Assembly (NCBI GenBank): GCA_963813325.1
Contig: CAWEYM010000002.1
Coordinates: 70,391-134,390, forward strand
From: an uncultured Acidobacteriota bacterium
Lineage (GTDB): Bacteria > Acidobacteriota > Vicinamibacteria > Vicinamibacterales > JAKQTR01
DNA: 64,000 bases
Direction: 5' to 3'
Position 1 is the first letter of the stretch. Every line of letters starts with the position of its first letter. Both the position numbers and the translations under genes were made by a program. Below the pieces are notes generated by a model. It saw nothing but the letters and a program-made list of their open reading frames with translations. It was not told where the DNA came from and made no database searches. Of the stretch, positions 20,291 to 52,617 are shown one piece after another.

Positions 20291-20306
20291 TCCAAGTATC
20301 GTGCCG
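20291..20306 (-). promoter_or_regulatory. Sigma-54-type promoter candidate cGGCACGatacTTGgA
   Basis: The minus-strand reading CGGCACGATACTTGGA matches TGGCACG-N4-TTGCW at 13 of 16 positions with correct spacing. It lies about 65 nt upstream of the lipoprotein ATG. Confidence 0.35.
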
Positions 20307-20320
20307 AGGGCCGGGAGACT

Positions 20321-21331
20321 TTAGGCTGCCACGGAACCGCGACCAATGTAGGCCACCGCGCCGGATAGGGAAAACAGGATGATGAGCGCGGCCCCGACGA
20401 ACGACACGATCAGGGCCGACTCGATCGGCAGGCCAAGGCGGGTGAAATAGAACGAAAAGGTGGCTTCCCGCACCCCGAACCCGTTCACCGACACAGGCAG
20501 CATCTGGACGATGAACGAGATCGGCACGATCACCGCCAGGTGCGCCGCCGAGACCGGGATGTGCATGCTGTGGACGATCGCCACGTAGAAGCCCACCAGG
20601 ACCACCTGAACGACGACCGCGCCGCCGAAGCAGGCCAGGAGGGAACGAGGCTGCTTGCCGAACCGGCCGAGCGCCGCCGTGAACCGGGCAATCCGTTCGT
20701 CCACCCACTCCTGGTGGAACACCCGGAGCGGGCTGAGGAGCTTGCCGATGCCCTGGGGCATGAAGACGATGGGCAGCGCGATGATGACGCCGGCGCCGAA
20801 CACCGCCCACAGGAGCGGGGCAGCCCGAAGCCCCCTGGCGTCAGCCGTAACCAGCGAGGCCCCGAACGCGGCTACGAGGAAAAGCCCGAGGAGTCCGATC
20901 CCGCGGTCCATCAGCACGATCGTCGTGGCCAGGGTTTTCGACCCAGCCTGCTGGACCGTGTCCCGAATGCGAATCACATCCCCGCCGATGTTGCTCGGGA
21001 GGAAGTTGTTGAAGAACGTGGCCACCAGGTAGGAGTTCACGAGGCGCGAGCCCGGAACCTGGATATGCTGGGCCTGCAGGAGCAGATGCCACCGCCAGGC
21101 GCTGACCAGGAGCATGACCAGGTAGAGGCCGAGGGCCGCACCGAGCCAGAGCGGCGAGGCCGCACGCAGATAGGTGCCCAGGCGCGAGAAGTCGGTCTTC
21201 GAGAACAACAGCGCCAGCAGGCCGCCACTGACGGCAATCTTGAATGCCAGAATCAGAAGCCGACGGGTGAGGCTTGGTGCCGAGGTGGGGTCGGTGGCGT
21301 CTTGCATGCAGGAATCGAGGCCGGTCGCCAT
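20321..21331 (-). CDS. Flippase-like / LPG-synthase-TM-region family (UPF0104) membrane protein, paralog 2
   Basis: Carries SAWRWHLLLQAQ and NNFLPSNIGGDVIRIRD and has a multi-TM layout. An alternative ATG lies at 21307. Confidence 0.75.
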   Translation of the reverse strand: MATGLDSCMQDATDPTSAPSLTRRLLILAFKIAVSGGLLALLFSKTDFSRLGTYLRAASPLWLGAALGLYLVMLLVSAWRWHLLLQAQHIQVPGSRLVNSYLVATFFNNFLPSNIGGDVIRIRDTVQQAGSKTLATTIVLMDRGIGLLGLFLVAAFGASLVTADARGLRAAPLLWAVFGAGVIIALPIVFMPQGIGKLLSPLRVFHQEWVDERIARFTAALGRFGKQPRSLLACFGGAVVVQVVLVGFYVAIVHSMHIPVSAAHLAVIVPISFIVQMLPVSVNGFGVREATFSFYFTRLGLPIESALIVSFVGAALIILFSLSGAVAYIGRGSVAA

Positions 21332-21431
21332 GGCCGGACATGAGCCGGCCGTCAGCGGAAGGCTACCATGCGCGGCACGAGGTGTCCACCCCTAAAGGCT
21401 TCAGAGAAGGGAAGTTCCGGACATCGCCGCG

Positions 21432-21460
21432 TTGACCTTTGCCGCCCGCTCCCCTACAAT
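21432..21460 (+). promoter_or_regulatory. Sigma-70-type promoter TTGACC-N17-TACAAT
   Basis: TTGACCtttgccgcccgctccccTACAAT lies about 60 nt upstream of the GT4 start at 21520. Confidence 0.55.
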
Positions 21461-21519
21461 CGGTCGATTGGTCGGATGGCGCCCATCTCGCAGGGGGCGC
21501 GCGCCTGCTTGGCATCGCG

Positions 21520-22707
21520 ATGCACATTCTGATGATCGCGCCGGAGCCGTTCTTCGAGCCCCGGGGCACGCCCTTCAGCGAATATCACCGGATCCGGGCC
21601 CTGGCGGATCTGGGCCACACCGTGGACCTGGTGACCTATCCGTTCGGCCGTGACGTCGCGCTGCCGGGACTCCGCATCTTCCGGGCCGCGCGGCCTCCAC
21701 TGGTCCACCGCGTCAGGATCGGGCCCTCGATGGCGAAACTCCCGCTCGACGCGTTGCTGGCGGTGAAAGCGTTTGCGGTGGCGCGCCGGGGCCGGTACGA
21801 CCTGGTCCACTCTCACGAGGAAGGGGCTGCGATCGGCATCGCCGTGGCCCGTCGGCTCGGGGTGCCGCACCTCTACGACATGCACTCGAGCCTGCCCGAG
21901 CAGTTGGCCAACTTCCGCTTCAGTCAGTCGAAGCTGCTGACCGGGCTGTTCCGGCGGCTGGAGCGGCGCGTCGTCGGTCGTTCCCGGGTCGTGATCGTGA
22001 TCTGCCGCCACCTGGAAGAGGTCGTGCAGCGCATCGACCCTGACGCCAGGACGGTGCTGATCGAAAACGCGCCCGGCGCCGGCGAGGCCCGTCCCATCCA
22101 GGGGCCCAACCCCGTGCGCGCGCAGCTCGGCCTGGCTCCGGACGAGCCGATCGTGCTCTACACCGGGACCTTCGAAGCCTATCAGGGCCTGGACCTGTTG
22201 TTTGCCGCCATGCGGACGGCCCTTGGTCGCGTCCCGCGCGCGAAGCTGGTGATGGTCGGCGGGCATCCGGACCAGGTGGAGCGTGCCAGGCGCGAGGCCG
22301 CGCAGGCTGGCGTGGCCGGCTCGACGATGTTCACCGGCGAACGGCCATCCGACGAGATCCCGCTGTACCTCGATGCCGCCGACGTGCTGGTGTCGCCGCG
22401 CAGCCGCGGCAAGAACACGCCGCTGAAGATCTATCAGTACCTGCGCGCCGGCCGGCCCATCGTCGCAACCGCCCTGCTGACCCACACGCAGGTGCTCGAT
22501 TCGAACGTCGCGATCCTGACCGAGGCGACGCCAGCGGCCTACGGGCAGGGCATCGCCGAGGCGATCCTGAACCGCGAACTGGCAACCGCGATCAGTCGGC
22601 GGGCGCGCGAGCTGGCGGACACGAAGTACACCTACGAGGCGTACGTCGAGAAGACGAAGCGGGCGATCGGGCTGCTGGCCGAGCCGGCGATTGCGGAGGG
22701 TGCGTGA
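21520..22707 (+). CDS. Glycosyltransferase family 4 (GT-B)
   Basis: Begins MHILMIAPEPFFEPRGTPFS and has a GT-B C-terminal domain with PRSRGKNTPLKIYQYLRAGRPIVAT. Confidence 0.85.
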   Translation: MHILMIAPEPFFEPRGTPFSEYHRIRALADLGHTVDLVTYPFGRDVALPGLRIFRAARPPLVHRVRIGPSMAKLPLDALLAVKAFAVARRGRYDLVHSHEEGAAIGIAVARRLGVPHLYDMHSSLPEQLANFRFSQSKLLTGLFRRLERRVVGRSRVVIVICRHLEEVVQRIDPDARTVLIENAPGAGEARPIQGPNPVRAQLGLAPDEPIVLYTGTFEAYQGLDLLFAAMRTALGRVPRAKLVMVGGHPDQVERARREAAQAGVAGSTMFTGERPSDEIPLYLDAADVLVSPRSRGKNTPLKIYQYLRAGRPIVATALLTHTQVLDSNVAILTEATPAAYGQGIAEAILNRELATAISRRARELADTKYTYEAYVEKTKRAIGLLAEPAIAEGA

Positions 22708-23501
22708 GCCGGCCGGAGCCCGGTGGTGTTCCGGCGCCTGGCACGGGGGCAGGCGGCCCCGAACGGGACCATTACAGCTATCGTGTGTACGCCGACCCCT
22801 CGATGGCCGAGCAGTTCGAGGCCGCCCGCTTCGGTGGCGCGATCGGACAGCTCCTGGCGCGGAGCCAGGAAGACGTGCTGTTCCGGTTCCTCGGGCCGCT
22901 CGAGGGCGTGGCCGTGCTGGATGTCGGCACGGGCACGGGACGGGCGGCGCTGGCGGTGGCCCGGAAGGGTGCGGCCGTCACGGGCGTCGACGCGTCGCCG
23001 GAGATGCTGCGGGTCGCCGTCGAGCGGGCCGCCGCCGCCGGCGTGGCGGTTCGATTCGAGGTGGGCGACGCGCACGCCCTGGCGTTTCCGGACCGGTCGT
23101 TCGACGCGGCCGTCAGCCTCCGTGTCCTGATGCACACGCCCGACTGGCGGCGGTGCCTCGGAGAGTTGTGCCGCGTGTCCCGGTCGCGTGTCGTGTTCGA
23201 CTACCCGTCGGCGACGAGCGCCGCGGCAATCCAGGCCCTGGGGCGTCGCATGGTGGCCGCGACGGGGCGAACCGTGGAAGCCTACCGGGTGCTGCGCGGC
23301 GGCGCGATTCGCGCGGTCCTCGAAGCCCACGGCTTTCGCGTCAAGGGGGTGCACCGCCAGTTCGTCCTGCCGATTGCCGTGCACAAGCTGATCGGGTCGC
23401 GTGGATTCACGGAGGGCGTCGAGCGCGTGCTGGCGGCCGTGGGCCTGCTCCGGCTGTTTGGCTCCCCGGTCACCGTGGTAGCCGAGCGATGCGAGTTCTA
23501 G
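22704..23501 (+). CDS. Class I SAM-dependent methyltransferase
   Basis: Has motif I VLDVGTGTGRAA and ends motif II-like. The GTG start overlaps the upstream TGA (GTGA). Confidence 0.8.
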   Translation: MSRPEPGGVPAPGTGAGGPERDHYSYRVYADPSMAEQFEAARFGGAIGQLLARSQEDVLFRFLGPLEGVAVLDVGTGTGRAALAVARKGAAVTGVDASPEMLRVAVERAAAAGVAVRFEVGDAHALAFPDRSFDAAVSLRVLMHTPDWRRCLGELCRVSRSRVVFDYPSATSAAAIQALGRRMVAATGRTVEAYRVLRGGAIRAVLEAHGFRVKGVHRQFVLPIAVHKLIGSRGFTEGVERVLAAVGLLRLFGSPVTVVAERCEF

Positions 23502-24511
23502 TCACCGGCGCCACCGGGTTCACGGGCGGGCATCTGGCGAGGGGCCTTCGGGCCCGCGGGCACGATGTGCGGGCGCTCGTGCGCCGGCTGGAGAGCGGGG
23601 CCGAGGACCTCGAGCGACTGGGTATCGAGTTGTGCGAGGGCAATCTCACGGACCGCGGGTCGCTCGGGCGCGCCGCCGACGGCGTGCAGGTCGTCTATCA
23701 CGTTGCCGCCATCTACCGGCAGGCCAGTGTGGGGGCGGCCGAATACGCGGCGGTGAACGCCCGCGCGGTCCAGTGGCTGGTGGAGGCCGCGGCACAAGGC
23801 GGGGCGGTCAGGCTGGTGCATTGCAGCACGGTGGGTGTGCACGGCGACGTCGAGCACCCGCCGGCGGGCGAGGACGCGCCGCTGCGTCCCGGTGACGAGT
23901 ACCAGCGCACCAAGCTCGAGGGCGAGCGGCTGGCCCGGGCCGCCGCGGAGCGGACGGGTCTGGAACTGGTCATCGCCCGGCCCAGCGGGATCTACGGGCC
24001 GGGAGACCGCCGGCTGCTCAAGCTGTTTCGGGGCGTGGCGCAACGTCGATTCGTCACCCTGGGATCCGGCGAGATCTTCTACCATCTGACGTACATCGAC
24101 GACCTGGTCGAGGGATTCCGGCTCTGTGGCGAGGTGCCGGCGGCGGCAGGCCGGACCTACATTCTGGCCGGGGGTGAGGTCACGCGGTTGAACGAACTGA
24201 TCGGCCTGATTGCCGGGGAAGCCGGCGTCCCGCCCCCGCGCCTGCACCTGCCCGTGTGGCCGTTCTGGGCGGCGGGCGCGCTGTGTGAGGCCATCTGCGT
24301 GCCCTTGCGGATCGAGCCGCCGCTCTACCGTCGCCGCGTGGACTTCTTCACGAAAAGCCGCGCGTTCGACATTTCACGGGCACGAGCCGAACTGGGATTC
24401 GCCCCGCAGGTCGGCCTGCGGGAGGGCATCCGCCGGACGCTGGCGTGGTACCGCGCCCAGGGCTGGATCCAGGGCCCCGGCAGGCGGGGATCGGGGAAGG
24501 GCGATGACTGA
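23489..24511 (+). CDS. NAD-dependent epimerase/dehydratase (SDR)
   Basis: Begins MRVLVTGATGFTGGHL with an extended SDR fold. It overlaps the upstream gene by 13 nt. Confidence 0.85.
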   Translation: MRVLVTGATGFTGGHLARGLRARGHDVRALVRRLESGAEDLERLGIELCEGNLTDRGSLGRAADGVQVVYHVAAIYRQASVGAAEYAAVNARAVQWLVEAAAQGGAVRLVHCSTVGVHGDVEHPPAGEDAPLRPGDEYQRTKLEGERLARAAAERTGLELVIARPSGIYGPGDRRLLKLFRGVAQRRFVTLGSGEIFYHLTYIDDLVEGFRLCGEVPAAAGRTYILAGGEVTRLNELIGLIAGEAGVPPPRLHLPVWPFWAAGALCEAICVPLRIEPPLYRRRVDFFTKSRAFDISRARAELGFAPQVGLREGIRRTLAWYRAQGWIQGPGRRGSGKGDD

Positions 24512-25274
24512 GACGCGCGCGATTCCCAAGGCGCAGGAGCAGTTGTTCGACGCGCGGTCGTCGGCGCTGCAGAAGTACGCCGCGCTCGTGGTCGGCCGCC
24601 CGGGCATATGGGCGCTCGTCAAGCACGAGTTCGTGACCCTGCTGAGCCAGGCGGTGCCGGGCGCGCTCGGGCTCGTGCTGCGCAAGCTGCTGTACCCGCA
24701 ACTGCTCGGCGCCTGCGGGCGCAACGTCGTGTTCGGCCAGAACGTCGTCCTGCGCCACCCGGGCAAGATCCGCATTGGCGACAACGTGGTCGTCGACGAC
24801 AACTGCCTGCTCGACGCGAAGGGCGATCGGAACGACGGCATCAGGATCGGCAGCGGGGTGTTCGTGGGACGGAACACGATCCTCTCGTGCAAGAACGGCG
24901 ACATCACGCTCGGCGATCGCGCCAACATCGGGTTCAACTGCGAGGTGTTCTCGGCGAGCCGCGTCACGATCGGGTCGGACACCCTGCTGGCCGCGTACTG
25001 CTACGTCATCGGCGGCGACCACGACTTCAGCGACACGACGAAGCCGGTGCTGGCCGGCGAGCGCAGTTCGGCCGGCGTGTCGATTGGCGACGGGGTCTGG
25101 ATGGGTGCGGGCGCCAAGATCCTCGACGGCGTGGACATTGGCCAGCACGCCATCGTCGGTGCCGCCGCCGTCGTCCGGCAGGCCGTGCCGGCCTACGCCA
25201 TCGCGGCAGGCGTGCCCGCGAAGATCATCGGCACACGGGCGCCCGAGCCCGCGTCGGGACACGGACCATCATGA
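24504..25274 (+). CDS. Left-handed beta-helix (hexapeptide repeat) acyl/acetyltransferase
   Basis: Has repeated [LIV]G-x4 hexapeptides (IRIGDNVVVDDNCLL, IRIGSGVFVGRNTIL, VSIGDGVWMGAGAKIL) and an N-terminal TM-like segment. Confidence 0.8.
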   Translation: MTETRAIPKAQEQLFDARSSALQKYAALVVGRPGIWALVKHEFVTLLSQAVPGALGLVLRKLLYPQLLGACGRNVVFGQNVVLRHPGKIRIGDNVVVDDNCLLDAKGDRNDGIRIGSGVFVGRNTILSCKNGDITLGDRANIGFNCEVFSASRVTIGSDTLLAAYCYVIGGDHDFSDTTKPVLAGERSSAGVSIGDGVWMGAGAKILDGVDIGQHAIVGAAAVVRQAVPAYAIAAGVPAKIIGTRAPEPASGHGPS

Positions 25275-26479
25275 CGGACCGGAAGCTGAACATCCTGCAG
25301 ATCTGCGATCATCTCGGCTGGGAAGGATCCCGCATGCACGGGGTCAAGCGGCTGTTCGCCTGGATGATCCCGCGCTTCGACCCGGCGCGCTACAACGTGT
25401 CGCTCGTCAGCCTCCGGAAGAAGGACCTGTCGGAGGAAACGCTGGAGTCGTTCGGCGTCGACATCACGTACCTCCACAAGTCGAAGTTCGATCCGGCGAC
25501 GCTGACCGCGCTGCTGAAGGTCATCGACGCCAAGCGGATCGACATCCTGCACATGCACGGGTACGGCGCGACGACCTTCGGGCGCGGGGCCGCGGCCATC
25601 CGGAGGCTGCCGGCCATCCTGCATGAGCACGCGAACCTGACGGACACGCCGTGGTTCCAGAAGGTCGCCGACAGGGCGCTCGAGCCGTTCACCGACATCG
25701 CGATTGCCGTGTCGAAGAGCACCGCCGACTTCGTGATCAACGCGCGCCTGGTCCGGCCGGAGAAGGTGAAGGTGGTGTACCTGGGCGTCCCCCTCGACGA
25801 GTTCAGCCTCGTGCGCAGCCCGGCTGGAATCGCGGAGGCCCGGCGCGAGATCGGCCTGGCGGACGACGACTTCGCGATCGGGAGCGTGACGCGATTGCAC
25901 GACTCGAAGGGCAACGAGTACCTCGTGGACGCGGCGCGGATGGTGCTCGACGCGAACCCGCGGGCCAGGTTCTTCCTGGTTGGGGAGGGCCCGCTGCTCC
26001 CCGCGTTGCAGGCACAGGCGGCCCGGCTCGGCCTCGGGGACCGGTTCGTGTTCTCGGGGTTCGTTCGCGACGTGGCCCGGATCCTGTCGGCCTTCGACCT
26101 GAGCGTGTTCCCGTCGTTGTGGGAGGGGACGCCGCTCACGGGCTTCGAGGCGCTCGCGGCCGGCCGCGCAATTGTGGCCACCGACGCGGACGGCCTGGTC
26201 GACATCCTCCGGGACGGGTACGATGCGCGCATCGTGCCGAAGCGCAACGCGCGGGCCCTGGCCGACCAGATCCTGGCGCTCATGGGCCAGCCGGACGAGC
26301 GGGCGCGGCTCGCGGCCAACGCGCGGGTCACGAGCCGCCGGTACGACATCAACACGTTCGTCAGGAAAATGGAACGGCTGTACCCGCTCCTCCACGAGAC
26401 GTCGCGGCGGACGCACCGCCGCGGCATCCTCGAGGCGGACCTGGACTTCCTGGCGGCCGACAATCCCGATCGGGTGTAA
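25271..26479 (+). CDS. Glycosyltransferase family 4 (GT-B)
   Basis: Contains FPSLWEGTPLTGFEALAAGRAIVATD (EX7E-type motif). The start forms an ATGA overlap with the upstream gene. Confidence 0.85.
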   Translation: MTDRKLNILQICDHLGWEGSRMHGVKRLFAWMIPRFDPARYNVSLVSLRKKDLSEETLESFGVDITYLHKSKFDPATLTALLKVIDAKRIDILHMHGYGATTFGRGAAAIRRLPAILHEHANLTDTPWFQKVADRALEPFTDIAIAVSKSTADFVINARLVRPEKVKVVYLGVPLDEFSLVRSPAGIAEARREIGLADDDFAIGSVTRLHDSKGNEYLVDAARMVLDANPRARFFLVGEGPLLPALQAQAARLGLGDRFVFSGFVRDVARILSAFDLSVFPSLWEGTPLTGFEALAAGRAIVATDADGLVDILRDGYDARIVPKRNARALADQILALMGQPDERARLAANARVTSRRYDINTFVRKMERLYPLLHETSRRTHRRGILEADLDFLAADNPDRV

Positions 26480-26483
26480 CACG

Positions 26484-28390
26484 GTGGACGAGCCAGCCAG
26501 CAACACGGGTTCACCCGTCACGACCGAGACCCGGCCGTCCCATCGCATGGATGCGGCGCCGGGCCTGGTGGCCGCCGTGCTCGTGCTCTGCGTGTACGGG
26601 GGCCTGGGCCTCTCGGTGGACTTCTCGCGCGCCGCGTTCGGCATCCAGAGCGACGAGGCCACCTACTACATGATGGGGCACAGCCTGGCCGAGGACGGCG
26701 ACCTGGCCTACCGCCGCGAGGACCTGGCGCGCGTCTGGCGGGACTTCCCGACGGGCCCGTCGGGCGTGTTCCTGAAGAAGGGCCGCGACCTCGACGTCTC
26801 CGTGAACGGGACCCCCCCGTTTGTCCACGTGCAGTCGGCGCCCGATCCGGACGCCGCGGAACTGTTCTTTGGGAAGTCGTACGCGTACCCACTGTTTGCG
26901 GCGCCGTTTGTCGCCCTGTTCGGCACCAACGGGTTCCTGGTGTTCCACGCGGTGCTGCTCGCCCTGATGGTCCTCGCCGGCTACCTGTTTCTCAACGCCC
27001 GGACGTCGCCCGTCCCCGCGCTCGTGCTGGCGGTCGGGTTCCTGATGGCCTCGGTGGCGCCGGCGTACTACGTGTGGATCACGCCGAGCTCTTCGACCTC
27101 GCGCTGGTCGTGCTGGGGTATTTCGCCTGGCTCTACAAGGAGGTCGCGCGGCCCGACGGCGTGCCCCGGGGGGCCCGCTGGCTCCTCCAGCCGCGTTCGG
27201 ACATCGTGGCGGTGCTGCTGCTGGGCGTGGCGACCTTCTCGAAGCCGTCGAACATCCTCCTGGTCCTGCCCCTGCTGGCGTGGCTCGTCATCAAGCGACG
27301 ATGGCGCCGGGCCGCGGCCTGCGGCCTCCTGTTCGGCGCGTGCGGCGCCGTGCTGCTCGCTGGCAACGTGGCGGTCACGGGCGACTGGAACTTCCAGGGC
27401 GGCGACCGTCGGACCTTCTACGGGGTCTACCCGTTCCAGGACCGGCTGGTGAGTTGGGATGCGGTCGGGCAGGACCGCGCGACCAACCGCGTCCTGACAG
27501 AGATCATCTTCGACCGGCGCGTGTTCTGGACCGTCTTCTCGCACAACCTCGCGTACTTCTTCATCGGTCGGTACTCGGGGCTGTTGCCGTACTTCTTCCC
27601 GGCCGTGTTCGCGCTCGGCGCGTTCCTGGTGCGCCGGCGGTGGCGACGGCCCTGGCAGTGGCTGGTTCTCGGCGCTGCGCTGGCCGAGATCCTGCTGCTG
27701 ATCATCTGGATTCCCTACAACTACTTCGGCGGCGGGGGAGTGCTGGGCAATCGGTACTTCATGAATACGTACGGGCTGTTCCTGTTCCTGCTGCCGCCCG
27801 TCGAATCGATTGGGGCAGCGATCGTCCCGTGGGTGGTCGGCGGCCTGTTTGCCGCCCAGATCACGCTCAATCCCTTCTTCGCGTCCTTCAACCCGGCCGA
27901 GCATGCCAAGCAGGGCCCGCTCCGTCTGCTGCCCGTCGAGCTCACCCTGGTCAACGACCTGCCGATCAACACGCAGGCCAATCGCGCCCGCGTCTGGTTC
28001 GGCCAGCAGCGCCGCTTCCAGATCTACTTCCTGGACGACAACGCGTTCGGGCGGGAAGACCTGAGCTTCTGGGTGCGCGGCCGGTCGACGGCCGAGTTCC
28101 TCGTGAAGACCGTTGAGCCGGCCTCGAGTCTCCGGCTGGTCATCGACACGGGCGATGTGCCCTCGCGCATCACCGTGTCGCGCGGGTGGTGGAGCCAGAC
28201 GGTGGATCTGCCGCCGAAGCAGTCGACCACGGTGTCCGTCCCGCTCGACGCGGGCTTCCCGTACCAGGGCACGCGTGTCTGGGTGGTGTCGGTGCGCGGC
28301 AGCGGCGGGTTCGTGCCGATGTTCCTCACGGCCGGCTCGACCGACAACCGGTATCTGGGCGTGCGCGTCACGCCCGAGTTGATGCCCTAG
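26484..28390 (+). pseudogene. GT-C-type (GT39/83-like) polytopic membrane glycosyltransferase split by a -1 frame change near 27080-27090
   Basis: The first part (frame of ORF 26172..27452) has the first-loop acidic motif SDEATYYMMGHSLAEDGDLAY and reads ..APAYYVWITP. The protein-like sequence then continues in the frame of ORF 27074..28390 (ELFDLALVVLGYFAWLY..). The start is GTG 26484 or ATG 26547. Confidence 0.6.
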
Positions 28391-28404
28391 AGGCGGATGC
28401 ACAC

Positions 28405-29448
28405 GTGAAGCGCATCGCGGTGGTGACGTCGAGCCCGCTGCTGGCCGAAGGCGGTCACCTGGTGATTGCCCGGGCGCTGGTCGCCGCGCTGAGGGAAGCC
28501 GGGCATGAAGCGGGGCTCATCCTCACCCCCCAGAATCGCTTCGGCCGGCAGGCGTCCGCCTACGTCGCGACATGGCTGACCGATGTCGGCGTGACCCATA
28601 ACGGCGGCCACGTCGACCACGTGATCAGTTTCCGGTACCCCAGCTACGCGGTCCGCCACCCGTCGCACGTGTGCTGGCTCAACCACCGCATGCGGGAGTA
28701 CTACGACCTGTGGGATCGCTTCAGCGGCCCGCTGTCGTGGCGCGCACGGATCAAGGAACGGATCCGGCGACGGGCCATCCACGCGGTCGACCGGTATCTC
28801 CTCACGCGCAACGTGTCGCGTCTCTACGCGCAGTCGCGCACGATCCAGCGCCGCCTCGAGCGCTTCGGGGGGATTCCAGCGGAGGTGCTGTACCCGCCCC
28901 CGCCGCAGAGACCCTACCGGTGCGACGAGTACGGTGACGACCTGTTCGCCGTGTCGCGCCTTACGCCGCTGAAACGGATGGACCTGCTCATCCGCGCCCT
29001 CGCGGAGCCGGACGCCGCGGGCATCCGCTGCACCATAGCGGGGGATGGCGACGAGGCGGCCCGGCTCGACGCGCTGGTGCGCGAGCTCGGCCTCCAGGGC
29101 CGCGTGCGGCTGATCGGCGCGGTGGGCACGGATGACCTCGTCGAGTACCTCGCCCGCTGCCGGGCGGTGGTCTTCCCGGCCTTCGAGGAGGATTTCGGCC
29201 TGGTCACGGTCGAGGCCTTCGCCTCGCGCAAGGCCGTCGTCACCTGCACGGACAGCGGCGGTCCAGCGGAACTGGTGGAGGACGGGGTGCAGGGCTTCGT
29301 GTGCCTGCCCGAGCCTCGCGCCCTTGCGGGGGCCCTGCGCCGGCTGGCAGACGACCTGGCGCTAGCCGAGCGGATGGGCGCGGAGGCCGCCCGCGTGGCC
29401 TCGGCGATCACGTGGCCGCGCACGGTGGAGAAACTCCTCCTGCGGTAG
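28405..29448 (+). CDS. Glycosyltransferase family 4 (GT-B)
   Basis: Contains FPAFEEDFGLVTVEAFASRKAVVTCTDSGGPAE (EX7E motif). GTG start. Confidence 0.8.
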   Translation: MKRIAVVTSSPLLAEGGHLVIARALVAALREAGHEAGLILTPQNRFGRQASAYVATWLTDVGVTHNGGHVDHVISFRYPSYAVRHPSHVCWLNHRMREYYDLWDRFSGPLSWRARIKERIRRRAIHAVDRYLLTRNVSRLYAQSRTIQRRLERFGGIPAEVLYPPPPQRPYRCDEYGDDLFAVSRLTPLKRMDLLIRALAEPDAAGIRCTIAGDGDEAARLDALVRELGLQGRVRLIGAVGTDDLVEYLARCRAVVFPAFEEDFGLVTVEAFASRKAVVTCTDSGGPAELVEDGVQGFVCLPEPRALAGALRRLADDLALAERMGAEAARVASAITWPRTVEKLLLR

Positions 29449-41583: not shown

Positions 41584-45190
<3,607 letters not shown>

Positions 45191-45191
<1 letters not shown>

Positions 45192-46561
45192 TGAAACCAC
45201 GGATCCTGGTGGTTGACGACGAGTCGGCCATCCGCGACTCGATGCGGATGATCCTCGAGTACGAGGGCTACGACTTCCTGGGCGCCGCGACGGGCGAAGA
45301 GGGCATCGCCGTCGTCCAGCGGGAGTCGGTGGACCTGGTGTTTCTCGACATCAAGATGCCGGGCATGGACGGCCTCGAGACGCTCGGCCGGATCAAGAGC
45401 GCGGCGGACTCGCTGCCGGTGGTGATCATCTCCGGCCACGGGACGGTCGCCACCGCGGTCGAGGCCACCAAGCTGGGGGCGTTCGACTTCATCGAGAAAC
45501 CGCTGGCGAGCGAGCGCATCCTCCTGACCATCCGCAACGCCATCGGCTTCAGCCGCCTGCGCGACGAGAACCGGAACCTGCTGCGCGCCGTCGAAGTGCG
45601 CCACGAGATGGTCGGCACGAGCGAGGCGCTCCGGCACGTCGTCGAAGCGGTGGGCAAGGCCGCGCCGACCAACGCGACCGTGCTCATCCGGGGCGAGAGC
45701 GGCGTCGGCAAGGAACTCGTCGCCCGCATGATTCACAAGAACAGCCTGCGCCGCCGCGAGCGGTTCGTGCAGGTGAACTGCGCCGCGATCCCCGAGGAAT
45801 TGATCGAGTCGGAGCTGTTCGGGCACGAAAAGGGCTCCTTCACCGGCGCCACCGAGAAACAGATCGGCAAGTTCGAGCAGGCCGATCGCGGCACCATCTT
45901 CCTCGACGAAGTCGGCGACATGAGCCCGAAGACCCAGGCCAAGGTCCTGCGGGTGCTGCAGGAGGGGGAGGTCGAGCGGCTCGGCTCCGCGCGCACGCTG
46001 AAGGTGGACGTCCGCGTCATCGCCGCCACCAACAAGGACCTCGAGTCCGAGATCGAGAAGGGGACCTTCCGCGAGGACCTGTTCTTCCGGCTCAGCGTCA
46101 TCCCGATTCACGTGCCGCCGCTGCGCGAGCGCCCGGACGACATCCCGCTGCTCGTCCGCCATTTCGCCGACCAGTTCGGCCGCGAGAACAACTTCCGGCC
46201 CAAGCGTTTCACGCCCGAGGCGATGGACGTGATGCAGCGCAACCGCTGGAAGGGCAACGTCCGCGAGTTGCGCAACACGGTGGAACGCGTCATCATCATG
46301 AGTCCGGGCGACAGCGTGGACGTGGCCGATCTGCCGGAGACCGTGCGGGTCGACCTGCGGCCGTCGGCGCCCGACAACGGGCAGGATCGTTCGGGCACGC
46401 TCCGCGAATTCAAGGAGTCGGCCGAACGGGCGTTCCTCCTCGGGAAGCTGCGGGAGAACGGCTGGAACATCTCGAAGACCGCCGAGGCCATCGGGACGCC
46501 GCGCAGCAACCTCTACAAGAAGCTCGAGCAGTACAACATCCGGCAAGAACAGGAGTCCTGA
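45191..46561 (+). CDS. Sigma-54-dependent response regulator (REC-AAA+-HTH, NtrC family)
   Basis: Has REC LVFLDIKMPGMDG, Walker A GESGVGKE, an intact GSFTGA loop, and a C-terminal Fis-type HTH NISKTAEAIGTPRSNLYKKL. Confidence 0.9.
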
Positions 46562-46571: not shown

Positions 46572-47062
46572 CCGCCGCAGTCGGGCCAGACGACCGCCGC
46601 TGCCGGCCTGACCGGCGCCCACGGGGCGCCGGCACCAGCCGGCAGGGGAGGAAAGTCCGAACTCCGCAGGGCAGTGCGCCGGGTAACGCCCGGTCAGGGT
46701 GACCTGAAGGAAAGTGGCACAGAAAATATACCGCCCGCCTTCGCGCCTTCGGCGCTTCGGCGTGGCAGGCCCTCGTGGGCGTGCCCGCCGTAGCTCGCTG
46801 GCCGGCCGCAAGGCTCCAGCGAGCGGGGCAGGTAAGGGTGAAAAGGTGCGGTAAGAGCGCACCGCGCCCGCGGCAACGTGGGTGGCAGGCAAAACCCCGC
46901 ACGGAGCAAGACCAAATAGGGAGGCGTTCGAGGGTGGCCCGCCCGATGCCTCCGGGTCGGTCGCTGGACCCCGCCAGAGATGGCGGGGCTAGAGGAATGG
47001 TCGTCGCCCGCGGGGGTTGTCCCCGCGGGAACAGAATTCGGCTTACGGCCCGGCTGCGGCGG
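46572..47062 (+). ncRNA. rnpB: RNase P RNA, bacterial type A
   Basis: Conserved blocks are present: GGAGGAAAGTCCGAAC, GGGTAACGCCCGGT, CACAGAAAATATACCGCC, GGTAAGGGTGAAAAGGTGCGGTAAGAGCGCACC, AGCAAGACCAAATAGG and GAACAGAATTCGGCTTAC. P1 pairing is CCGCCGCAGTCGGGCC / GGCCCGGCTGCGGCGG. The ends are approximate. Confidence 0.88.
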
Positions 47063-47092
47063 TTCGTCTCGATTTGAACAGGGGGCGTGCTC

Positions 47093-48034
47093 ATGGCGGC
47101 GTACCTGGTGACGGGTGGAGCGGGCTTCATTGGTTCCCATCTCGCGGAGGCCCTGGTCGATCGCGGCGAACGGGTGCGCGTGGTGGACAGCCTGGTGACC
47201 GGCAAGCGCAGTAACCTGGCGCACCTGCCGGCCGTCGAGTTCATCGAGGGCGACCTGGCCGACATGGCCGTCGCCCGGCGGGCCGTCGAGGGGATGGACT
47301 ACGTCCTGCACCAGGCGGCGATCCCGTCGGTGCCCCGCTCGGTCGCCGATCCGGTCACGTCCCACCGCTCGAACGTCGACGCCACGCTGAACGTGCTGGT
47401 CGCCGCCCGCGACGCGGGCATCCGCCGCGTCCTCTTTGCCGGATCGTCGTCGGTGTACGGGGATGCGCCGACGCTGCCGAAGCGGGAGGACTTCCCGACC
47501 CGGCCGCTGTCGCCGTACGCGCTGCAGAAGGCCATCGGCGAGGAGTACGGCCGCCTGTTCACGGCGCTCTACGGCCTGGAGTTCGTCAGCATCCGCTACT
47601 TCAACGTCTTCGGCCCGCGGCAGGACCCGTCATCTCCGTACTCCGGCGTCATCTCGCTCTTCATCAGGGGCCTGGTCGACGGGCGTGCCCCGACCATCCA
47701 CGGCGACGGCGGACAGACGCGCGACTTCACCTACGTGGCCAACGTGGTCGACGGCGTCCTCAGGGCGTGCCACGCCGATGGCGTGTCCGGCCAGGTGATC
47801 AACGTCGCGACCGGGGGGCGGGTGTCGCTCAACGAACTGTACGCGACGCTGTCGTCGCTGACCGGGTCGACAGTCGAGGCGATCTACGGCCCCGCGCGGG
47901 CTGGCGACGTCCGGCATTCCCAGGCGGACATCACGAAGGCGCGGCAGTTGCTCGGCTATGCGCCCCTCGTGTCGCTCCAGGAGGGCCTCGCCAACACGCT
48001 GGCGTGGGTTCGTGCCGACGTCGTCCAGGCCTGA
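47093..48034 (+). CDS. NAD-dependent nucleotide-sugar epimerase (extended SDR)
   Basis: Contains VTGGAGFIGSHL and the catalytic YALQK (YxxxK). An alternative GTG lies at 47087. Confidence 0.85.
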   Translation: MAAYLVTGGAGFIGSHLAEALVDRGERVRVVDSLVTGKRSNLAHLPAVEFIEGDLADMAVARRAVEGMDYVLHQAAIPSVPRSVADPVTSHRSNVDATLNVLVAARDAGIRRVLFAGSSSVYGDAPTLPKREDFPTRPLSPYALQKAIGEEYGRLFTALYGLEFVSIRYFNVFGPRQDPSSPYSGVISLFIRGLVDGRAPTIHGDGGQTRDFTYVANVVDGVLRACHADGVSGQVINVATGGRVSLNELYATLSSLTGSTVEAIYGPARAGDVRHSQADITKARQLLGYAPLVSLQEGLANTLAWVRADVVQA

Positions 48035-48162: not shown

Positions 48163-48184
48163 TGCCTGCAGGAGGCCGCAGGCA
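48163..48184 (+). promoter_or_regulatory. Inverted repeat TGCCTGC-N8-GCAGGCA (possible activator site)
   Basis: Read directly from the sequence. It lies about 120-140 bp upstream of the sigma-54-type promoter at 48303. A third TGCCTGC half-site lies near 48255. Confidence 0.3.
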
Positions 48185-48302
48185 ACTCCAGGTCACAGTT
48201 CCGCCGCCTCGCCGACGTCGCCGGCCGGCCAGGTTGAGTCGGCCGAGGCGGAAGTGCCTGCCTGACAACACGTTTCTCGAACGACCGCGCGCAGCGCGTG
48301 GT

Positions 48303-48318
48303 TGGCCGCCACCTTGCG
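48303..48318 (+). promoter_or_regulatory. Sigma-54-type promoter candidate TGGCCGccaccTTGCG
   Basis: The GG and TTGC elements are at exact canonical spacing, about 125 nt upstream of the comEA GTG. Confidence 0.45.
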
Positions 48319-48441
48319 CAATGACGACACGAGCCCTGTTCTCGCGCCCGACCCGGTGCCCGACCTCCGCCGGCAACGGCGTGGGGACGGGGCCCGCCAT
48401 TACTGCAGGCCCATGCCTGCCCATGCGAAAGGAGCCAGACC

Positions 48442-48786
48442 GTGCGTTATCCCACAGCGATTGCCTTGGCGTGCCTGCTCGCCGTCCTGACCGGTACGAC
48501 GGTGGCCGGCGCCGCCAGCCCGCAGACCCCGGCGACGACCTCCGAGGCCAAGGCCCTTGCGGGCCCGGTGGTCAACATCAACACCGCGACGGCCGCCCAG
48601 TTGGAGGCCCTGCCGGGCATCGGCCCGAAGATGGCGTCGCTCATCGTCGAGTACCGCCAGAAGAACGGCAACTTCAAGAAGATCGAGGAACTGATGAACG
48701 TGAAAGGCATCGGCGAGAAGAGCTTCCTGAAGCTGAAGGGCCGGCTGACGATCGGGGCCCCGGCCGCCGGCACGGCCGCCCGCTGA
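48442..48786 (+). CDS. comEA: ComEA-type periplasmic helix-hairpin-helix DNA-binding protein
   Basis: Has a signal peptide and the HhH motif INTATAAQLEALPGIGPKMASLIVEYRQKNGNFKKIEELMNVKGIGEKSF. The RBS AGGAG lies 8 nt upstream of the GTG. Confidence 0.8.
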   Translation: MRYPTAIALACLLAVLTGTTVAGAASPQTPATTSEAKALAGPVVNINTATAAQLEALPGIGPKMASLIVEYRQKNGNFKKIEELMNVKGIGEKSFLKLKGRLTIGAPAAGTAAR

Positions 48787-48816
48787 GGCTCGCCAGGCGC
48801 AGGAAGGGCGCGCAGG

Positions 48817-49479
48817 ATGCTGGCCCATCACTCGGCGTCGATGACCGCGCACCACGGAGCAGCCGTGGGTCGGCCCGCCCCCCGCGGATTGTGCCGGCCC
48901 TGCGCGCCGTCTGGCTTTACCCTCCTCGAACTGCTGCTGGTGGCGAGTGTCGCGGTCCTCGTCGCCGGAATCGGGATACCCGGAACACTCTCCGGGCTCG
49001 ACCAGGTCCGCGCGTCGGCTGCGGCCAGGTATGTCGCCGGCCGGCTGCAGGACGCCCGGATGGAGGCCGTGAAGCGGGGTGCTAATGTCGGCGTTCGCTT
49101 CACGACCGGGCCGTCGGGCGTGACGCTGGGCATGTTCCTCGACGGCAACAGCAACGGCGTCCTGGCACTGGACATCGCCAAATCCGTGGATGGTCCCATC
49201 ACGCCACCGGAGCGGCTCGAGGACCGCATCGGCGGAGCGTGCTTCGGCGTGGCGGACGGCGTCGGAGACCCCGAGACGGGGACGATGCTGCCGGCCGACC
49301 CGATTCGTCTCGGCTCGGGGAACATCCTGTCGTTCAGCCCGCTGGGGTCGGCCACCTCCGGCACTTTGTACATCCGCGGACGCGGGCGACAGCAGTACGC
49401 GGTGCGGGTGCTCGGGGCGACGGGCCGGGTGCGGGTGCTGCGGTACGACTTCGCGAGCCGTCAATGGACGACGCCGTGA
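48817..49479 (+). CDS. GspH/FimT-family minor (pseudo)pilin
   Basis: Has the prepilin cleavage/methylation motif G|FTLLELLLVASVAVLVAG and a GspH-like body. The C-terminal region has GRGR and GRVRV motifs. The RBS is AGGAAGG. Confidence 0.75.
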   Translation: MLAHHSASMTAHHGAAVGRPAPRGLCRPCAPSGFTLLELLLVASVAVLVAGIGIPGTLSGLDQVRASAAARYVAGRLQDARMEAVKRGANVGVRFTTGPSGVTLGMFLDGNSNGVLALDIAKSVDGPITPPERLEDRIGGACFGVADGVGDPETGTMLPADPIRLGSGNILSFSPLGSATSGTLYIRGRGRQQYAVRVLGATGRVRVLRYDFASRQWTTP

Positions 49480-49847
49480 ATCCGTCCGGCGATCGGCGCG
49501 CACATCGGCGAGCCGGACGAGAGAGTTTTCGGGCCCTGACGGCGCTGCGGGTACGGCCTGGCCGAGACGCCTGCCTGGTGAATCTCTCGTGCGGGGGCCT
49601 GGCGCTGGACGCCTACGCCCGTCTCTTGCCCGGTTCGGCTGTCGAGGTGCTCCTGGTCGCCGAGTCGGGCGTCCACGTTGTCAGGGGATCGATTGCCCGG
49701 TGCTACGTCGCTGGCATCCACCCGGACAGCGGTGTCCGCTATCGCGCCGGGGTGCGGTTCGACCACCCGCTGGGGGTGTCGGAGGTTTCGCGGTTGCGTG
49801 GGGCAGTTCCTTCCCACAATGAACTGGTTGGCCCAGCCCGTGAGTAG
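49464..49847 (+). CDS. PilZ domain protein
   Basis: Has RxxxR (RRAHRRAGR) and N-x-S-x-x-G (NLSCGG) motifs at PilZ-typical spacing. It overlaps the pilin gene by 16 nt. Confidence 0.7.
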   Translation: MDDAVNPSGDRRAHRRAGRESFRALTALRVRPGRDACLVNLSCGGLALDAYARLLPGSAVEVLLVAESGVHVVRGSIARCYVAGIHPDSGVRYRAGVRFDHPLGVSEVSRLRGAVPSHNELVGPARE

Positions 49848-49928: not shown

Positions 49929-49944
49929 TGGCACCGCGCTTGAT
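49929..49944 (+). promoter_or_regulatory. Sigma-54-type promoter candidate TGGCACcgcgcTTGAT
   Basis: The -24 element TGGCAC is perfect and the spacing is correct, but -12 reads TTGA instead of TTGC. It lies about 40 nt upstream of the ATG at 49983. Confidence 0.3.
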
Positions 49945-49982: not shown

Positions 49983-51500
49983 ATGAGATGCGATGCCGGA
50001 CGTTGCGGCAATCTCGTCGGGCGAGTGGCGCGGCAGCCAGAGCGTCGTCGGGGCGCCGAGGCGATTGTCGCGGCCATCGTCTCCGGGATTCGTGGGCACG
50101 GCGCCGGCGTCGGACTGCGGGGGCTGTTCGAGGATGCCGTCGGAAGCGTGGTACCCGTGGTCAGCGTACGGCTGTGTTCTCCCGGGGAACACGAGCGCCT
50201 GGCGGCTGCGCCCGGCGGCGAGGATTCCGTCATCCGGATTCCGGTGCGTTCGTGTCCCGGATCGGAGCCCGCAGTACTGGAGCTGCACGCGGACCCGGCG
50301 CGCCCGCTCGACGCCTGGGACCGGCAGGTCGTGGCACGTTCCGCGCAGTTGGCGACGCTGGTGCTCGAGGTCGAGAGGACGCACGCGTGGCGCGAACTGG
50401 GCCGGCGGCCGTTTCGCGGGGAGGATGGCGCAGCGCCGCTCATCGGATCGAGCCGGGGGATGCGCCTGCTGCGCGAGAAGATCGAGCGCGTCGCCGCCAC
50501 CGATTTCACCGTCCTCGTGGAAGGTGAGAGCGGCAGCGGAAAGGAGCTGGTCGCCCACCAGATCCACGACCTCAGCCGGCGGCGGCGCGGCCCGTTCGTC
50601 GCGATCAACTGCGCGGCCCTGGTGGAATCGCTGCTCGAGGCCGAACTGTTCGGCATCGAGGACCGGACCGCCACCGGTGTCCGCGGACGACGTGGGAAGT
50701 TCGAACACGCGACGGGGGGAACCTTGTTCCTGGACGAGGTGGCCGACCTCTCGCTGTCGGCCCAGGCCAAGCTCCTTCGCGCGATCCAGGAATGCGCCGT
50801 CGAACGAGTCGGCGGTCACCAGACCTACCACGTGGACATCCGCCTGGTGGTCGCGACCAACAGACGGCTCACCGAGCTCGTGGACCACGGGCTGTTCAGG
50901 CACGACCTGTACTACCGTCTCAGTGGCATCGACCTGCGCGTGCCGGCCTTGCGCACCCGGCGGGAGGACATCCTTGAACTCGCCACGTACTTTCTCGACC
51001 GGCATGCGGCGGTCCGGCACCTGAGTCTCTCACCCCCGGCGTCCGATGCGCTCCTCACCTACGACTGGCCCGGCAACGTGCGCGAGTTGGAGCGATTGAT
51101 GGAGGGGGCCGTCGCCCTCGTGACGGGGACCCGGATTGAGGTGGACGATCTCCCGGCCGCGGTGCGCGGTCGGTTCTCGGACGCGCTCCTGCCGGCGCTC
51201 GAACAGGGCGACACGCTCCGGTGCTGGGGCGGGCGCTACGCGCGCCTCGTCTACGAGCGTTGCGGCCGCAGCAAGCGCGAAGCGTGCCGCGTCCTGGGCA
51301 TCAGCTACCACACCTTGCAGGGGTACCTTGCCCAGAGCGCGTTCGGCAGCGAAGCGGACTACGCTTCGTCGAAGCCACCGGAGGACGGAGGGGCGGTGCC
51401 GCCCGCAGCCGGCGCTGTGGGCCTCGCGTGGCCCGAGGAATCGGCGACGATGGCGCACCCGGCCGTTGCGGCGTGCGCCGAAGGGCCACCCGAACCGTAG
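49983..51500 (+). CDS. Sigma-54 activator-family AAA+ regulator with a degenerate GAFTGA loop
   Basis: Has Walker A GESGSGKE, Walker B LFLDEV and a C-terminal HTH SKREACRVLGISYHTLQGYL. The loop reads ELFGIEDRTATGVRGRRGKFE in place of ELFGHEKGAFTGA. The N-terminal sensory domain of about 150 aa is unassigned (GAF-like?). Confidence 0.85.
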   Translation: MRCDAGRCGNLVGRVARQPERRRGAEAIVAAIVSGIRGHGAGVGLRGLFEDAVGSVVPVVSVRLCSPGEHERLAAAPGGEDSVIRIPVRSCPGSEPAVLELHADPARPLDAWDRQVVARSAQLATLVLEVERTHAWRELGRRPFRGEDGAAPLIGSSRGMRLLREKIERVAATDFTVLVEGESGSGKELVAHQIHDLSRRRRGPFVAINCAALVESLLEAELFGIEDRTATGVRGRRGKFEHATGGTLFLDEVADLSLSAQAKLLRAIQECAVERVGGHQTYHVDIRLVVATNRRLTELVDHGLFRHDLYYRLSGIDLRVPALRTRREDILELATYFLDRHAAVRHLSLSPPASDALLTYDWPGNVRELERLMEGAVALVTGTRIEVDDLPAAVRGRFSDALLPALEQGDTLRCWGGRYARLVYERCGRSKREACRVLGISYHTLQGYLAQSAFGSEADYASSKPPEDGGAVPPAAGAVGLAWPEESATMAHPAVAACAEGPPEP

Positions 51501-51816
51501 TGCCGCTCGTCGACGGCGGGGGGCCGGGCGCAGCGCGGCTGCCAGGGCGAGGAGATCGAGCAGGACCGGAAGACGCGACGGCGAAGGCATCGCCGTGGTC
51601 CGGGGCCTGCCCGGGGAATGGTGAAGCGGGGCGCCAGCGGCCCCGACGAAGGAAACGGCGTGTGAGGTCGACCCCGCGCGGGGGCTTGCCGCGCACGCCG
51701 GGACGCCTCCGGCGGATTCGAGGCTGGCGGGGCGAGGCGCCGCTGCGGCGGCGAGAGGTCGCGCACCGGCCGGGCGGGCCTGCAGGCCCGCCACATCCGT
51801 CTGGTGGGAGGTGCGC

Positions 51817-52617
51817 ATGAGGAGCTGGATTCGTTGCTGCGGAGGGGGTCTGATGGGACTGCTGCTGACCGCGACCGGAGTGATGGCGACCGATTCAGGC
51901 GTCCGGGCCCCCGGCGATTACGGGCCGGCCTCGATCGGCGTCTTCGAGACCGAGCCGCAAGCGGCGCAGCTCGTGCTGACAACGCAGTCCGGCGCGACGT
52001 TGTCGGCTGCGCGGACCGACACCGGCGCCATCGCGATCCGCATTGTCAGCCAGGGGCTGGACGTGCGGAAGATCGTCAGGCCGGACGGGGGCTTCCTGGT
52101 CCGCCTGCGGGTGGGGGCAGACCTGGTGACGGCGCTCGGCGACCAGGGCCGCTTGACCGTGTCGCGCCGGGGACGCACGGTCGTGCTCGAGGCCGCGACG
52201 ATCAGTGAATCGCGGGCCGCCGAGGCGCGTGCCCTGCTGGCGCAGTCGCCCGCGGTGCGGCAGTTCCGCGCCATGGTCACCGCCTTGACGCCCGAGGACA
52301 TCGCCAACCCAGCCTGGGCAGGATTCCTGGTCACCGCGACCTACTTCAGCCTGCTCGACGGCGATACCGACGCGGCGCGCCGGATGGCCATCCGGGCACA
52401 GACCGCTCGCCGCGCGGCGAGCGAGTTCGAAGGGGGGCCTGCCTGCTACGACACGTACCAGATCGATGTCGTGGGAGCGTTCAACGACTACGAGATCTGC
52501 GTGAACAGCTTCGGCTGGTGGAACCCGATGAGCGAGCTGTGCCTGTTCGAGTGGGTGCTCAGGGCTGAGTCGGCGTGGTTCACCTTTCTTGGGTGCTCGT
52601 CGTTCCCCGTGAAGTGA
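51817..52617 (+). CDS. Secreted hypothetical protein with Cys-rich C-terminus
   Basis: Has the signal-like N-terminus MRSWIRCCGGGLMGLLLTATGVMA and a C-terminal region with 5 Cys (CYDTYQ..EICVNSFGWWNPMSELCLFEW..FLGCSS). No family was recognised. The start is uncertain (51811, 51817 or 51853). Confidence 0.5.
   Translation: MRSWIRCCGGGLMGLLLTATGVMATDSGVRAPGDYGPASIGVFETEPQAAQLVLTTQSGATLSAARTDTGAIAIRIVSQGLDVRKIVRPDGGFLVRLRVGADLVTALGDQGRLTVSRRGRTVVLEAATISESRAAEARALLAQSPAVRQFRAMVTALTPEDIANPAWAGFLVTATYFSLLDGDTDAARRMAIRAQTARRAASEFEGGPACYDTYQIDVVGAFNDYEICVNSFGWWNPMSELCLFEWVLRAESAWFTFLGCSSFPVK

Follow-up and report, generated by a model that had tools for sequence, protein, structure and literature searches.

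A 64,000-nucleotide stretch of DNA from an uncultured soil bacterium of the Acidobacteriota, order Vicinamibacterales (contig CAWEYM010000002.1, positions 70,391–134,390; hereafter, the window) carries on its + strand the gene series comEA–pilin–PilZ–activator, which comparative sequence analysis identifies as a real unit, conserved in ~80 species-level genomes. Its genes encode a secreted DNA-binding protein, an orphan minor pilin, a candidate receptor of cyclic diguanylate (c-di-GMP), and a member of the sigma-54 activator family, and they are headed by a sigma-54-type promoter and a structured 5′ leader RNA. We lean towards reading this unit as a vertically inherited, self-contained Vicinamibacterales operon that would provide DNA capture and periplasmic retention for a type IV pilus encoded elsewhere, under the control of its own sigma-54 circuit.

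A conserved four-gene unit

A first-pass annotation of the window had placed a comEA, pilin, and PilZ module between two genes of the sigma-54 activator family, and all of these genes are where it put them. comEA (48442–48786; 114 amino acids [aa]) encodes a secreted protein with one helix-hairpin-helix (HhH) DNA-binding domain (HHH_3, TIGR00426) and is followed by the orphan minor pilin, a GspH/FimT-family prepilin gene (48817–49479; PF12019; start codon uncertain), the gene for a single-domain PilZ protein (49464–49847; 127 aa; PF07238, marginal in the window copy but matched by its orthologs), and the gene for the linked enhancer-binding protein (49983–51500; PF00158, AAA_lid_14), all on the + strand. 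The finer points of that annotation—a 30-nt gap between comEA and the pilin gene, a 16-nt overlap of the pilin and PilZ genes, the prepilin motif G|FTLLELLLV, and the RxxxR and NxSxxG motifs of PilZ—are correct in every detail.

Scanning species-representative genomes once gave 80 loci, labelled with few exceptions as Vicinamibacterales or Acidobacteriota. By tblastn, the order comEA–pilin–PilZ–activator is the same in nearly all of these ~80 related loci; comEA is syntenic in nearly all of them and the activator gene lies downstream of PilZ in most, while the epimerase gene upstream and the gcv genes downstream stand at variable distance or are absent. Because the order is kept while the flanking genes vary, we consider the four genes a conserved unit. 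Both flanking activator genes are present, yet only the downstream one is linked to the module: the distance of the upstream, NtrX-like gene from comEA varies between species, and among the relatives it travels with ligA/htrA instead. Inside the module, neither intrinsic terminators nor sigma-70 promoters were found beyond chance. The annotation had further called the arrangement undescribed, and our literature search turned up no paper describing it.

In one relative (L036), the leader (5866–5939) stands directly before the pilin gene and comEA was not found by tblastn; this lineage may have lost comEA.

A sigma-54-type promoter and a conserved upstream site

The promoter of the operon lies at 48303–48318 on the + strand (TGGCCG-CCACC-TTGCG, with GG at 48304–5 and GC at 48316–7; positions 48303–48317 read TGGCCGCCACCTTGC), and transcription is predicted to start at ~48329. 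In the window alone, TGGC-N7-TTGC occurs twice in 64 kb against 1.86 expected, i.e., at chance level. Among the relatives, 70 of 75 loci have GG[CTA]-N7-TTGC no farther than 320 nt upstream of comEA, as compared to 8.4% of random windows from the same loci, and spacings between N4 and N10 other than N7 recur in the same comEA-upstream regions in only 1–11 loci each. Sequence, spacing (GG-N10-GC), and position of the promoter, as the first-pass annotation had called it, are therefore conserved far beyond chance. The case rests on the relatives, because both the motif and the inverted repeat discussed below are at chance level within the window; with them, the comparisons strongly support the sigma-54 reading.

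An inverted repeat, TGCCTGC-N8-GCAGGCA (48163–48184), had been put forward as the enhancer-type site. It is present, but nine inverted repeats of 7 nt or longer occur in the 411-nt spacer, this one included, and its left arm is not kept in the relatives. Only its right arm overlaps a conserved upstream activator-type site at 48180–48197 (+ strand; AGGCAACTCCAGGTCACA); a conserved site ~120 bp above the promoter stands, whereas the repeat as originally drawn does not. The family consensus of this site, (TGA)CAAC-N4-G[GT][CT]G[TA]CA, is an imperfect palindrome, which becomes perfect in several species (e.g., TCAACCGCGGTTGA). When loci are anchored on the promoter GG, the CAAC stands at −119/−120 in 45 of 63, and ~38 of the 71 motif matches in 0.92 Mb fall upstream of comEA. 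The linked activator is the protein that we would expect to bind here.

Between the upstream site and the promoter, an IHF-like site (48264–48277, + strand; GACAACACGTTTCT; family pattern TCAA-N4-TT(C)C) shows conserved columns at −38 to −28 from the GG and a conserved AA at −51. The pattern resembles the consensus for integration host factor (IHF; WATCAANNNNTTR), making it a candidate site. The layout is that of a standard sigma-54 promoter region, with a predicted start site and putative binding proteins around it.

A structured leader RNA upstream of comEA

The predicted transcript would open with a long imperfect hairpin (48331–48395, + strand; apical loop GCCCGACCUCC), which scores 42.5 bits with our covariance model. 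In loci L001–L084, this leader is located at about positions 5400–5670, between the sigma-54 promoter and comEA, and in every locus the hairpin measures 63–80 nt and begins 13–15 nt after the TTGC, corresponding to ~+2 to +5 of the predicted transcript. A plain MAFFT alignment revealed compensatory changes in seven of seven closing-stem pairs, and 97% of the closing stem is paired across 63 distinct sequences (with pair types such as AU:31/GC:31 and CG:25/UA:24/UG:7). The proposed structure outscores all shuffles and all slid controls. Its stem comprises ~20 G-U pairs and not a single A-C pair, which points to an RNA read from the + strand and not to a DNA palindrome. The apical stem covaries, too, yet is paired in only ~70% of cells, in part because of register shifts. 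A further set of proposed pairs (P2; columns 16–19 with 77–80) was mostly unpaired in the MAFFT alignment, again with register shifts, and was dropped from the model. The window copy itself folds at −54.3 kcal/mol (z = −2.4).

The covariance model, built from 48 sequences, produced approximately one match per locus in all but a few loci, each of them immediately upstream of comEA (~1 Mb searched). In ~1.4 Mb searched, the leader occurred only before this operon, an extra copy in L057 apart. A metagenome scan with a degenerate leader pattern returned 80 loci, almost all of them chance matches; L094 and L152 alone score with the covariance model, and in both of these the leader precedes comEA–pilin. 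Rfam 15 contained no match at the gathering threshold for the window and 11 diverse loci (12 representatives), Rfam searches of the spacer with E-values of up to 10 gave two chance-level matches only, and a literature search yielded no report of the motif. The leader is a well-supported new RNA motif, previously uncatalogued and tied to one defined gene.

Its apical loop is nearly invariant as GCCYGACC and continues as UCC in most clades. Downstream of the hairpin, a G-poor spacer leads to a strong AAGGAGGA ribosome-binding site (RBS), and the CCUCC present in the loop of most clades is complementary to the GGAGG RBS of comEA. In a clade with a CCCCAU(C) loop, the complement to CCCCAU is a (G/A)UGGGG loop, presented by an additional hairpin farther downstream. 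Since the CCUCC loop can pair with the GGAGG RBS, we propose as a working hypothesis that the leader probably sets translation and/or mRNA stability through loop pairing. Such pairing does not explain the invariant GCCYGA part of the loop.

Two loci hold the leader in duplicate. In L057, a second copy of the control region (3110–3340), consisting of an upstream-site-like sequence, GGC-N7-TTGC, and a leader with the loop GGCCCGACCUC, precedes an open reading frame (3406–4479) for a secreted outer-membrane beta-barrel protein (PF13505, 29 bits) that has no homolog in the other loci. In this instance, promoter and leader behave as a portable control cassette. In L021, leaders at 3439–3511 and 5521–5593 stand on either side of a ~2-kb insert, which could reflect an insertion with target duplication or an assembly artefact; our guess is that the insert carries a toxin–antitoxin pair.

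An atypical activator linked to the operon

The linked activator consists of a variable N-terminal domain of ~150 aa, an AAA+ sigma-54-interaction domain (PF00158, 200.5 bits, plus AAA_lid_14), and a C-terminal Fis-type helix-turn-helix. The latter reaches only E = 0.22 with Pfam HTH_8, yet the region aligns with ZraR and displays a conserved NKRxAcRxLGISYHTL. The poorly conserved N-terminal domain has no Pfam match, and a homolog search with the N-terminal 156 aa gave three weak matches only. We considered FleQ-type c-di-GMP binding by the activator and rejected it, as its GKELVAHQIH has H-Q where FleQ has R-N. In the L1 loop (ELFGIEDRTATGVR, residues ~222–235), RTATGV stands in for GAFTGA; ELFGIE[DE]RTATGVR is found in ~64 of 71 orthologs, and of the GAFTGA residues only T and G survive. 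Activators normally require the phenylalanine of that motif (PMC4641369). The sole precedent that we found is DVUA0100 of Desulfovibrio, a protein with GVATGV whose role in driving sigma-54 promoters is itself a prediction (PMC4641369).

The activator gene is itself preceded by a second sigma-54-like promoter (49929–49944, + strand; TGGCAC-CGCGC-TTGAT), whose −12 element is non-canonical. TGGCA[CT]-N5-TTG[G/T/A] stands in the PilZ–activator interval of 59 of 68 loci versus 7.4% of controls, and never as TTGC. In ~23 loci the ATG of the gene follows 13–15 nt downstream of this promoter, which would give a leaderless activator transcript.

An insertion interrupts the activator gene in four species, each time at residue ~181–184, around the Walker A codons (L003, 7227–9336; L004; L205–L207; L006, ~7267–9325; L074, ~7245–8442; L077, ~7184–9326). 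The inserted element exceeds 9 kb and contains small genes on one strand, a gene for an AAA_25 protein, and, abutting the junction, a large serine recombinase gene (52–57% identity between species). The insertion is reminiscent of the prophage insertions in comK or sigK.

ComEA, the orphan pilin, and PilZ

ComEA scores well above the cutoffs of Pfam HHH_3 (86.6 bits versus 27) and NCBIfam TIGR00426 (73 versus 53.1). It falls below that of the full-length model TIGR01259 (85 versus 152) because the window protein is without the longer N-terminal part. Pfam T2SSK is passed as well (30 bits versus 24.2), but with a far lower score than the ComEA models. Judged by reading the sequence, the N-terminus (MRYPTAIALACLLAVLTGTTVAGA|AS) is a Sec-type signal peptide; a lipoprotein signal was dismissed, no lipobox being evident in the same reading. 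An AAGGAG RBS is positioned 8 nt upstream of comEA.

The pilin matches Pfam GspH (PF12019) at 34.5 bits (cutoff, 21) and has 1338 homologs in the protein collection. It would be cleaved at G33|F34 (mature from F34, position 48916); G33 and F34 are invariant and E38 nearly so. The family keeps A-V-R-V-x-G-x-T-G-R-x-R, with G-x-T-G-R-x-R nearly invariant, and among 32 homologs G203 is invariant and R204 and R206 are at least 90% conserved. Of the two arginine motifs highlighted in the first-pass annotation, G203-R204-V205-R206 is hence nearly invariant, whereas GRGR (residues 188–191) is not conserved. NCBIfam equivalog models for GspH, XpsH, and ComGD match only the N-terminal helix and remain far below their cutoffs (TIGR01708, the GspH equivalog: 26.1 bits versus 80).

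An AlphaFold2 model of the pilin (pLDDT 87.5) has a long N-terminal helix and two beta-sheets. The best solved folds retrieved with Foldseek were EpsH, FimU, and XcpH at similar E-values (probability 1.0 for EpsH and FimU), and structure therefore does not assign the pilin to a subfamily: in the comparison with FimT and FimU that had been suggested for this protein, FimU came up among the best matches and FimT did not. The contrary case raised alongside, a pilin clustering with a gsp operon, is not borne out, as there are no gsp neighbors in the window or the relatives examined. No second prepilin motif occurs anywhere in the 64-kb window; of the 84 related loci, examined over 6 kb, 64 show exactly one such motif and 14 show none, while the extras in the remainder look spurious. 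PF12019 includes GspH, FimU, and FimT (PMC8897410). In Legionella FimT, whose gene is an orphan too, the two arginines of GRxR mediate DNA binding (PMC8897410). A FimT-like role is favored because the pilin is an orphan and its GRxR motif is kept.

PilZ misses the cutoff of PF07238 marginally in the window (22.2 bits versus 22.5), but 23 of 24 orthologs match this family (best E-value, 9.8e-11), P0124 and the L001 ortholog being among its carriers. The window protein reads R12-xxx-R16 and N40-L-S-C-G-G (N40-x-S-x-x-G45), and the c-di-GMP-binding motifs noted by the first-pass annotation are kept across the family, RRxxxR in 74 of 74 and [DN]xSxxG in 69 of 74 orthologs. With both motifs kept, the PilZ family should bind c-di-GMP itself. 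The 16-nt overlap suggests that PilZ is translationally coupled to the pilin, and overlapping or abutting stop and start codons recur in L001 and L002. A homolog search with PilZ gave one match; an AlphaFold2 model from the resulting two-sequence alignment (pLDDT 39) was discarded as unusable, and a PilZ profile had no sequence match in the Protein Data Bank.

Genomic context

The window has a G+C content of 70%. Along the + strand, ligA, htrA, and a gene for an NtrX/NtrC-like response-regulator activator (45188–46561; PF00158; canonical GSFTGA; 3 kb upstream of the module) are followed by the bacterial class A RNase P RNA (46578–47060; 254 bits in Rfam), which lies between the NtrX-like gene and the NAD-epimerase gene (47087–48034). 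The RNase P RNA neighborhood recurs in several relatives. A 407-nt spacer then leads to comEA, the prepilin and PilZ genes, and the second sigma-54-activator-family gene, behind which stand a gene for a hypothetical secreted protein and gcvT, gcvH, and gcvP. The secreted protein (51811–52617, + strand; 268 aa) has no family match; weak homologs (26–42% identity) occupy the same position in about one third of the loci. Housekeeping and glycosyltransferase genes make up the neighbors of the module. Positions 9873–29448 are rich in genes for glycosyltransferases, methyltransferases, LPG-synthase-type membrane proteins, and radical-SAM proteins, and probably constitute a cell-envelope or exopolysaccharide cluster.

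Discussion

The observations combine into a working model, in which a regulated DNA-uptake accessory unit would be the best fit. The linked activator would receive a signal at its variable N-terminal domain and would in turn bind the palindromic site ~120 bp above the promoter; bending of the DNA at the IHF-like site could then bring the activator to the sigma-54 RNA polymerase at GG-N10-GC. The resulting transcript would start with the stable hairpin, whose CCUCC loop may pair with GGAGG and thereby set translation and/or stability. Exported ComEA would bind incoming double-stranded DNA. The FimT-like pilin, cleaved at G|F and assembled into the pilus, would offer DNA an arginine-rich C-terminal surface (AVRV-G-x-T-G-R-x-R), and the co-translated PilZ protein would bind c-di-GMP and couple pilus or uptake activity to this signal.

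Several observations weigh against this model. The 64-kb window contains no gene for pilB/C/D/M–Q, pilT, a secretin, comEC, dprA, or rpoN, and our literature search found no report of natural competence in Acidobacteria and none on competence or pili in Vicinamibacterales. For the pilin, FimT orthology is at best tentative, the closest solved folds being EpsH and FimU rather than FimT, and a pilin-family profile matched N-terminal pilin helices only among Protein Data Bank sequences. With regard to regulation, RTATGV in place of GAFTGA renders the ability of the activator to activate sigma-54 uncertain, and the CAAC-N4 upstream site is not enriched before the activator's own promoter. In the leader loop, conservation is lower for UCC than for GCCYGACC, and in the window copy the pairing of loop and RBS is weak (−7.3 kcal/mol).

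Each layer of the model has its alternatives. The 5′ hairpin might be no regulatory sensor at all, but a mere mRNA-stabilizing stem-loop or a DNA-level palindrome or operator. A single long hairpin within a few nucleotides of the predicted start, with no multi-stem junction found and a modest z-score in the window (−2.4), would suit that view; a purely stabilizing hairpin, however, needs no conserved loop, whereas GCCYGACC is nearly invariant here, the ~20 G-U pairs without A-C pairs argue for a + strand RNA over a DNA palindrome, and the complement of the loop changes together with the loop between clades. We regard this alternative as possible, though not probable. We are a little more doubtful that the comEA promoter is driven by another, canonical activator, with the linked AAA+ protein acting independently of sigma-54 or as a repressor. 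The exchange of GAFTGA for RTATGV in ~64 of 71 orthologs, the loss of a phenylalanine that is normally needed, and the presence of a canonical GSFTGA activator 3 kb upstream all speak for such a scenario. Yet the protein is strictly linked with the operon, the promoter, and the palindromic site in ~80 species, its helix-turn-helix is conserved, the canonical activator lies at variable distance and travels with ligA/htrA, and a predicted activator of sigma-54 promoters in Desulfovibrio has GVATGV.

As to function, the genes could serve a pilus or pseudopilus without any DNA import, the pilin acting as an adaptor minor pilin of the FimU/GspH kind, the HhH protein tethering extracellular DNA within the matrix of a biofilm, and PilZ providing a link to c-di-GMP-controlled surface behavior. 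The structural matches to EpsH, FimU, and XcpH, the weak N-terminal matches to GspH and XpsH in NCBIfam, the T2SSK score of the ComEA HhH region (30 versus 24.2), and the glycosyltransferase-rich region nearby in the window are all compatible with this, and a connection to life on surfaces is classical for c-di-GMP and PilZ. We nevertheless deem it unlikely: the pilin keeps the GRxR of DNA-binding FimT and in ~80 loci is never beside gsp or other minor-pilin genes, its GspH equivalog score is 26 against a cutoff of 80, and ComEA scores far higher with its own models than with T2SSK and begins with a Sec signal peptide instead of a prepilin leader. To a nutritional use of the imported DNA (for P, N, or C), with sigma-54-dependent induction under nutrient limitation and no role in transformation, we assign a similarly low probability. 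The components would be identical to those for transformation, and the sequence does not separate the two purposes. Sigma-54 regulons often respond to nutrient limitation, the com homologs of E. coli, including its ComEA homolog, are needed for the use of DNA as a nutrient, and cultured Vicinamibacteraceae are reported to grow on nucleic acids; no nuclease or nucleotide-transport gene, however, is linked to the operon. Least probable, in our estimation, is an extension of the DNA-uptake model to an autonomous competence switch, whereby the RTATGV activator would drive sigma-54, a ligand- or protein-sensing RNA with the GCCYGACC loop would gate ComEA translation through a loop–RBS pseudoknot or kissing interaction, and in some species an excisable recombinase element would serve as an on/off switch, analogous to the comK prophage of Listeria.

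Few soil bacteria are as abundant as the Vicinamibacterales, yet gene exchange in this order is very little understood. Should the DNA-uptake model hold, an operon combining a FimT-like receptor pilin with ComEA would extend the FimT mechanism beyond Gammaproteobacteria and give a genetic marker of DNA-uptake capacity in metagenomes. Likewise, the promoter region would represent a clean, testable sigma-54 circuit whose linked activator has no GAFTGA, and the leader a tractable candidate for a new translational switch, while the recombinase insertions hint at mobile-element control of the circuit. The parts are known and their arrangement is new; the leader RNA, the atypical activator, and the mobile-element insertions in the activator gene add to its interest.

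Among known systems, FimT of Legionella pneumophila and Acinetobacter baylyi provides a parallel for the pilin, sharing PF12019, a type IV prepilin N-terminus, an orphan location away from the fimU-pilVWXY1E cluster, and a C-terminal GRxR in an arginine-rich region (PMC8897410). The pilin described here differs in coming from Acidobacteriota instead of Gammaproteobacteria, in having no detectable sequence orthology to FimT, and in its larger size (~187 aa when mature). In its structural model, GRxR sits at the start of a beta-strand with ~14 residues after it, and not in a flexible tail; the pilin gene moreover forms an operon with comEA and PilZ, a linkage that we did not find for fimT in the literature. 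ComEA, for its part, resembles ComEA of Vibrio cholerae and ComE of Neisseria in being small and secreted with one (HhH)2 domain (PMC3879209). In Vibrio, comEA is controlled by TfoX/QstR/CRP (PMC3879209). Here, a sigma-54 promoter and a structured leader take that place, and gene layout suggests co-transcription with the pilin gene.

Sigma-54/PilR-type control is familiar from pilin genes such as pilA in Pseudomonas, Myxococcus, and Geobacter, and the present pilin gene is laid out similarly: a GG-N10-GC promoter, preceded by an activator site and an IHF-type site, stands upstream of it. Unlike in PilR/pilA control, the activator has no receiver domain but a variable N-terminal domain and an RTATGV loop, and its target would be a minor pilin together with comEA, not a major pilin. 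Single-domain PilZ adaptors—PilZ–FimX–PilB in Xanthomonas, MapZ in Pseudomonas—are likewise small, stand-alone PilZ domains linked to pilus biology, yet the family described here differs from the 'PilZ' protein of Pseudomonas and Xanthomonas in keeping RRxxxR and [DN]xSxxG. The leader, finally, shares with RBS-sequestering leaders a structure in the 5′ untranslated region and a CCUCC loop close to a strong RBS, whereas it departs from the cis-regulatory RNAs of Rfam in being a simple hairpin without an Rfam 15 match, whose GCCYGACC is not accounted for by RBS pairing.

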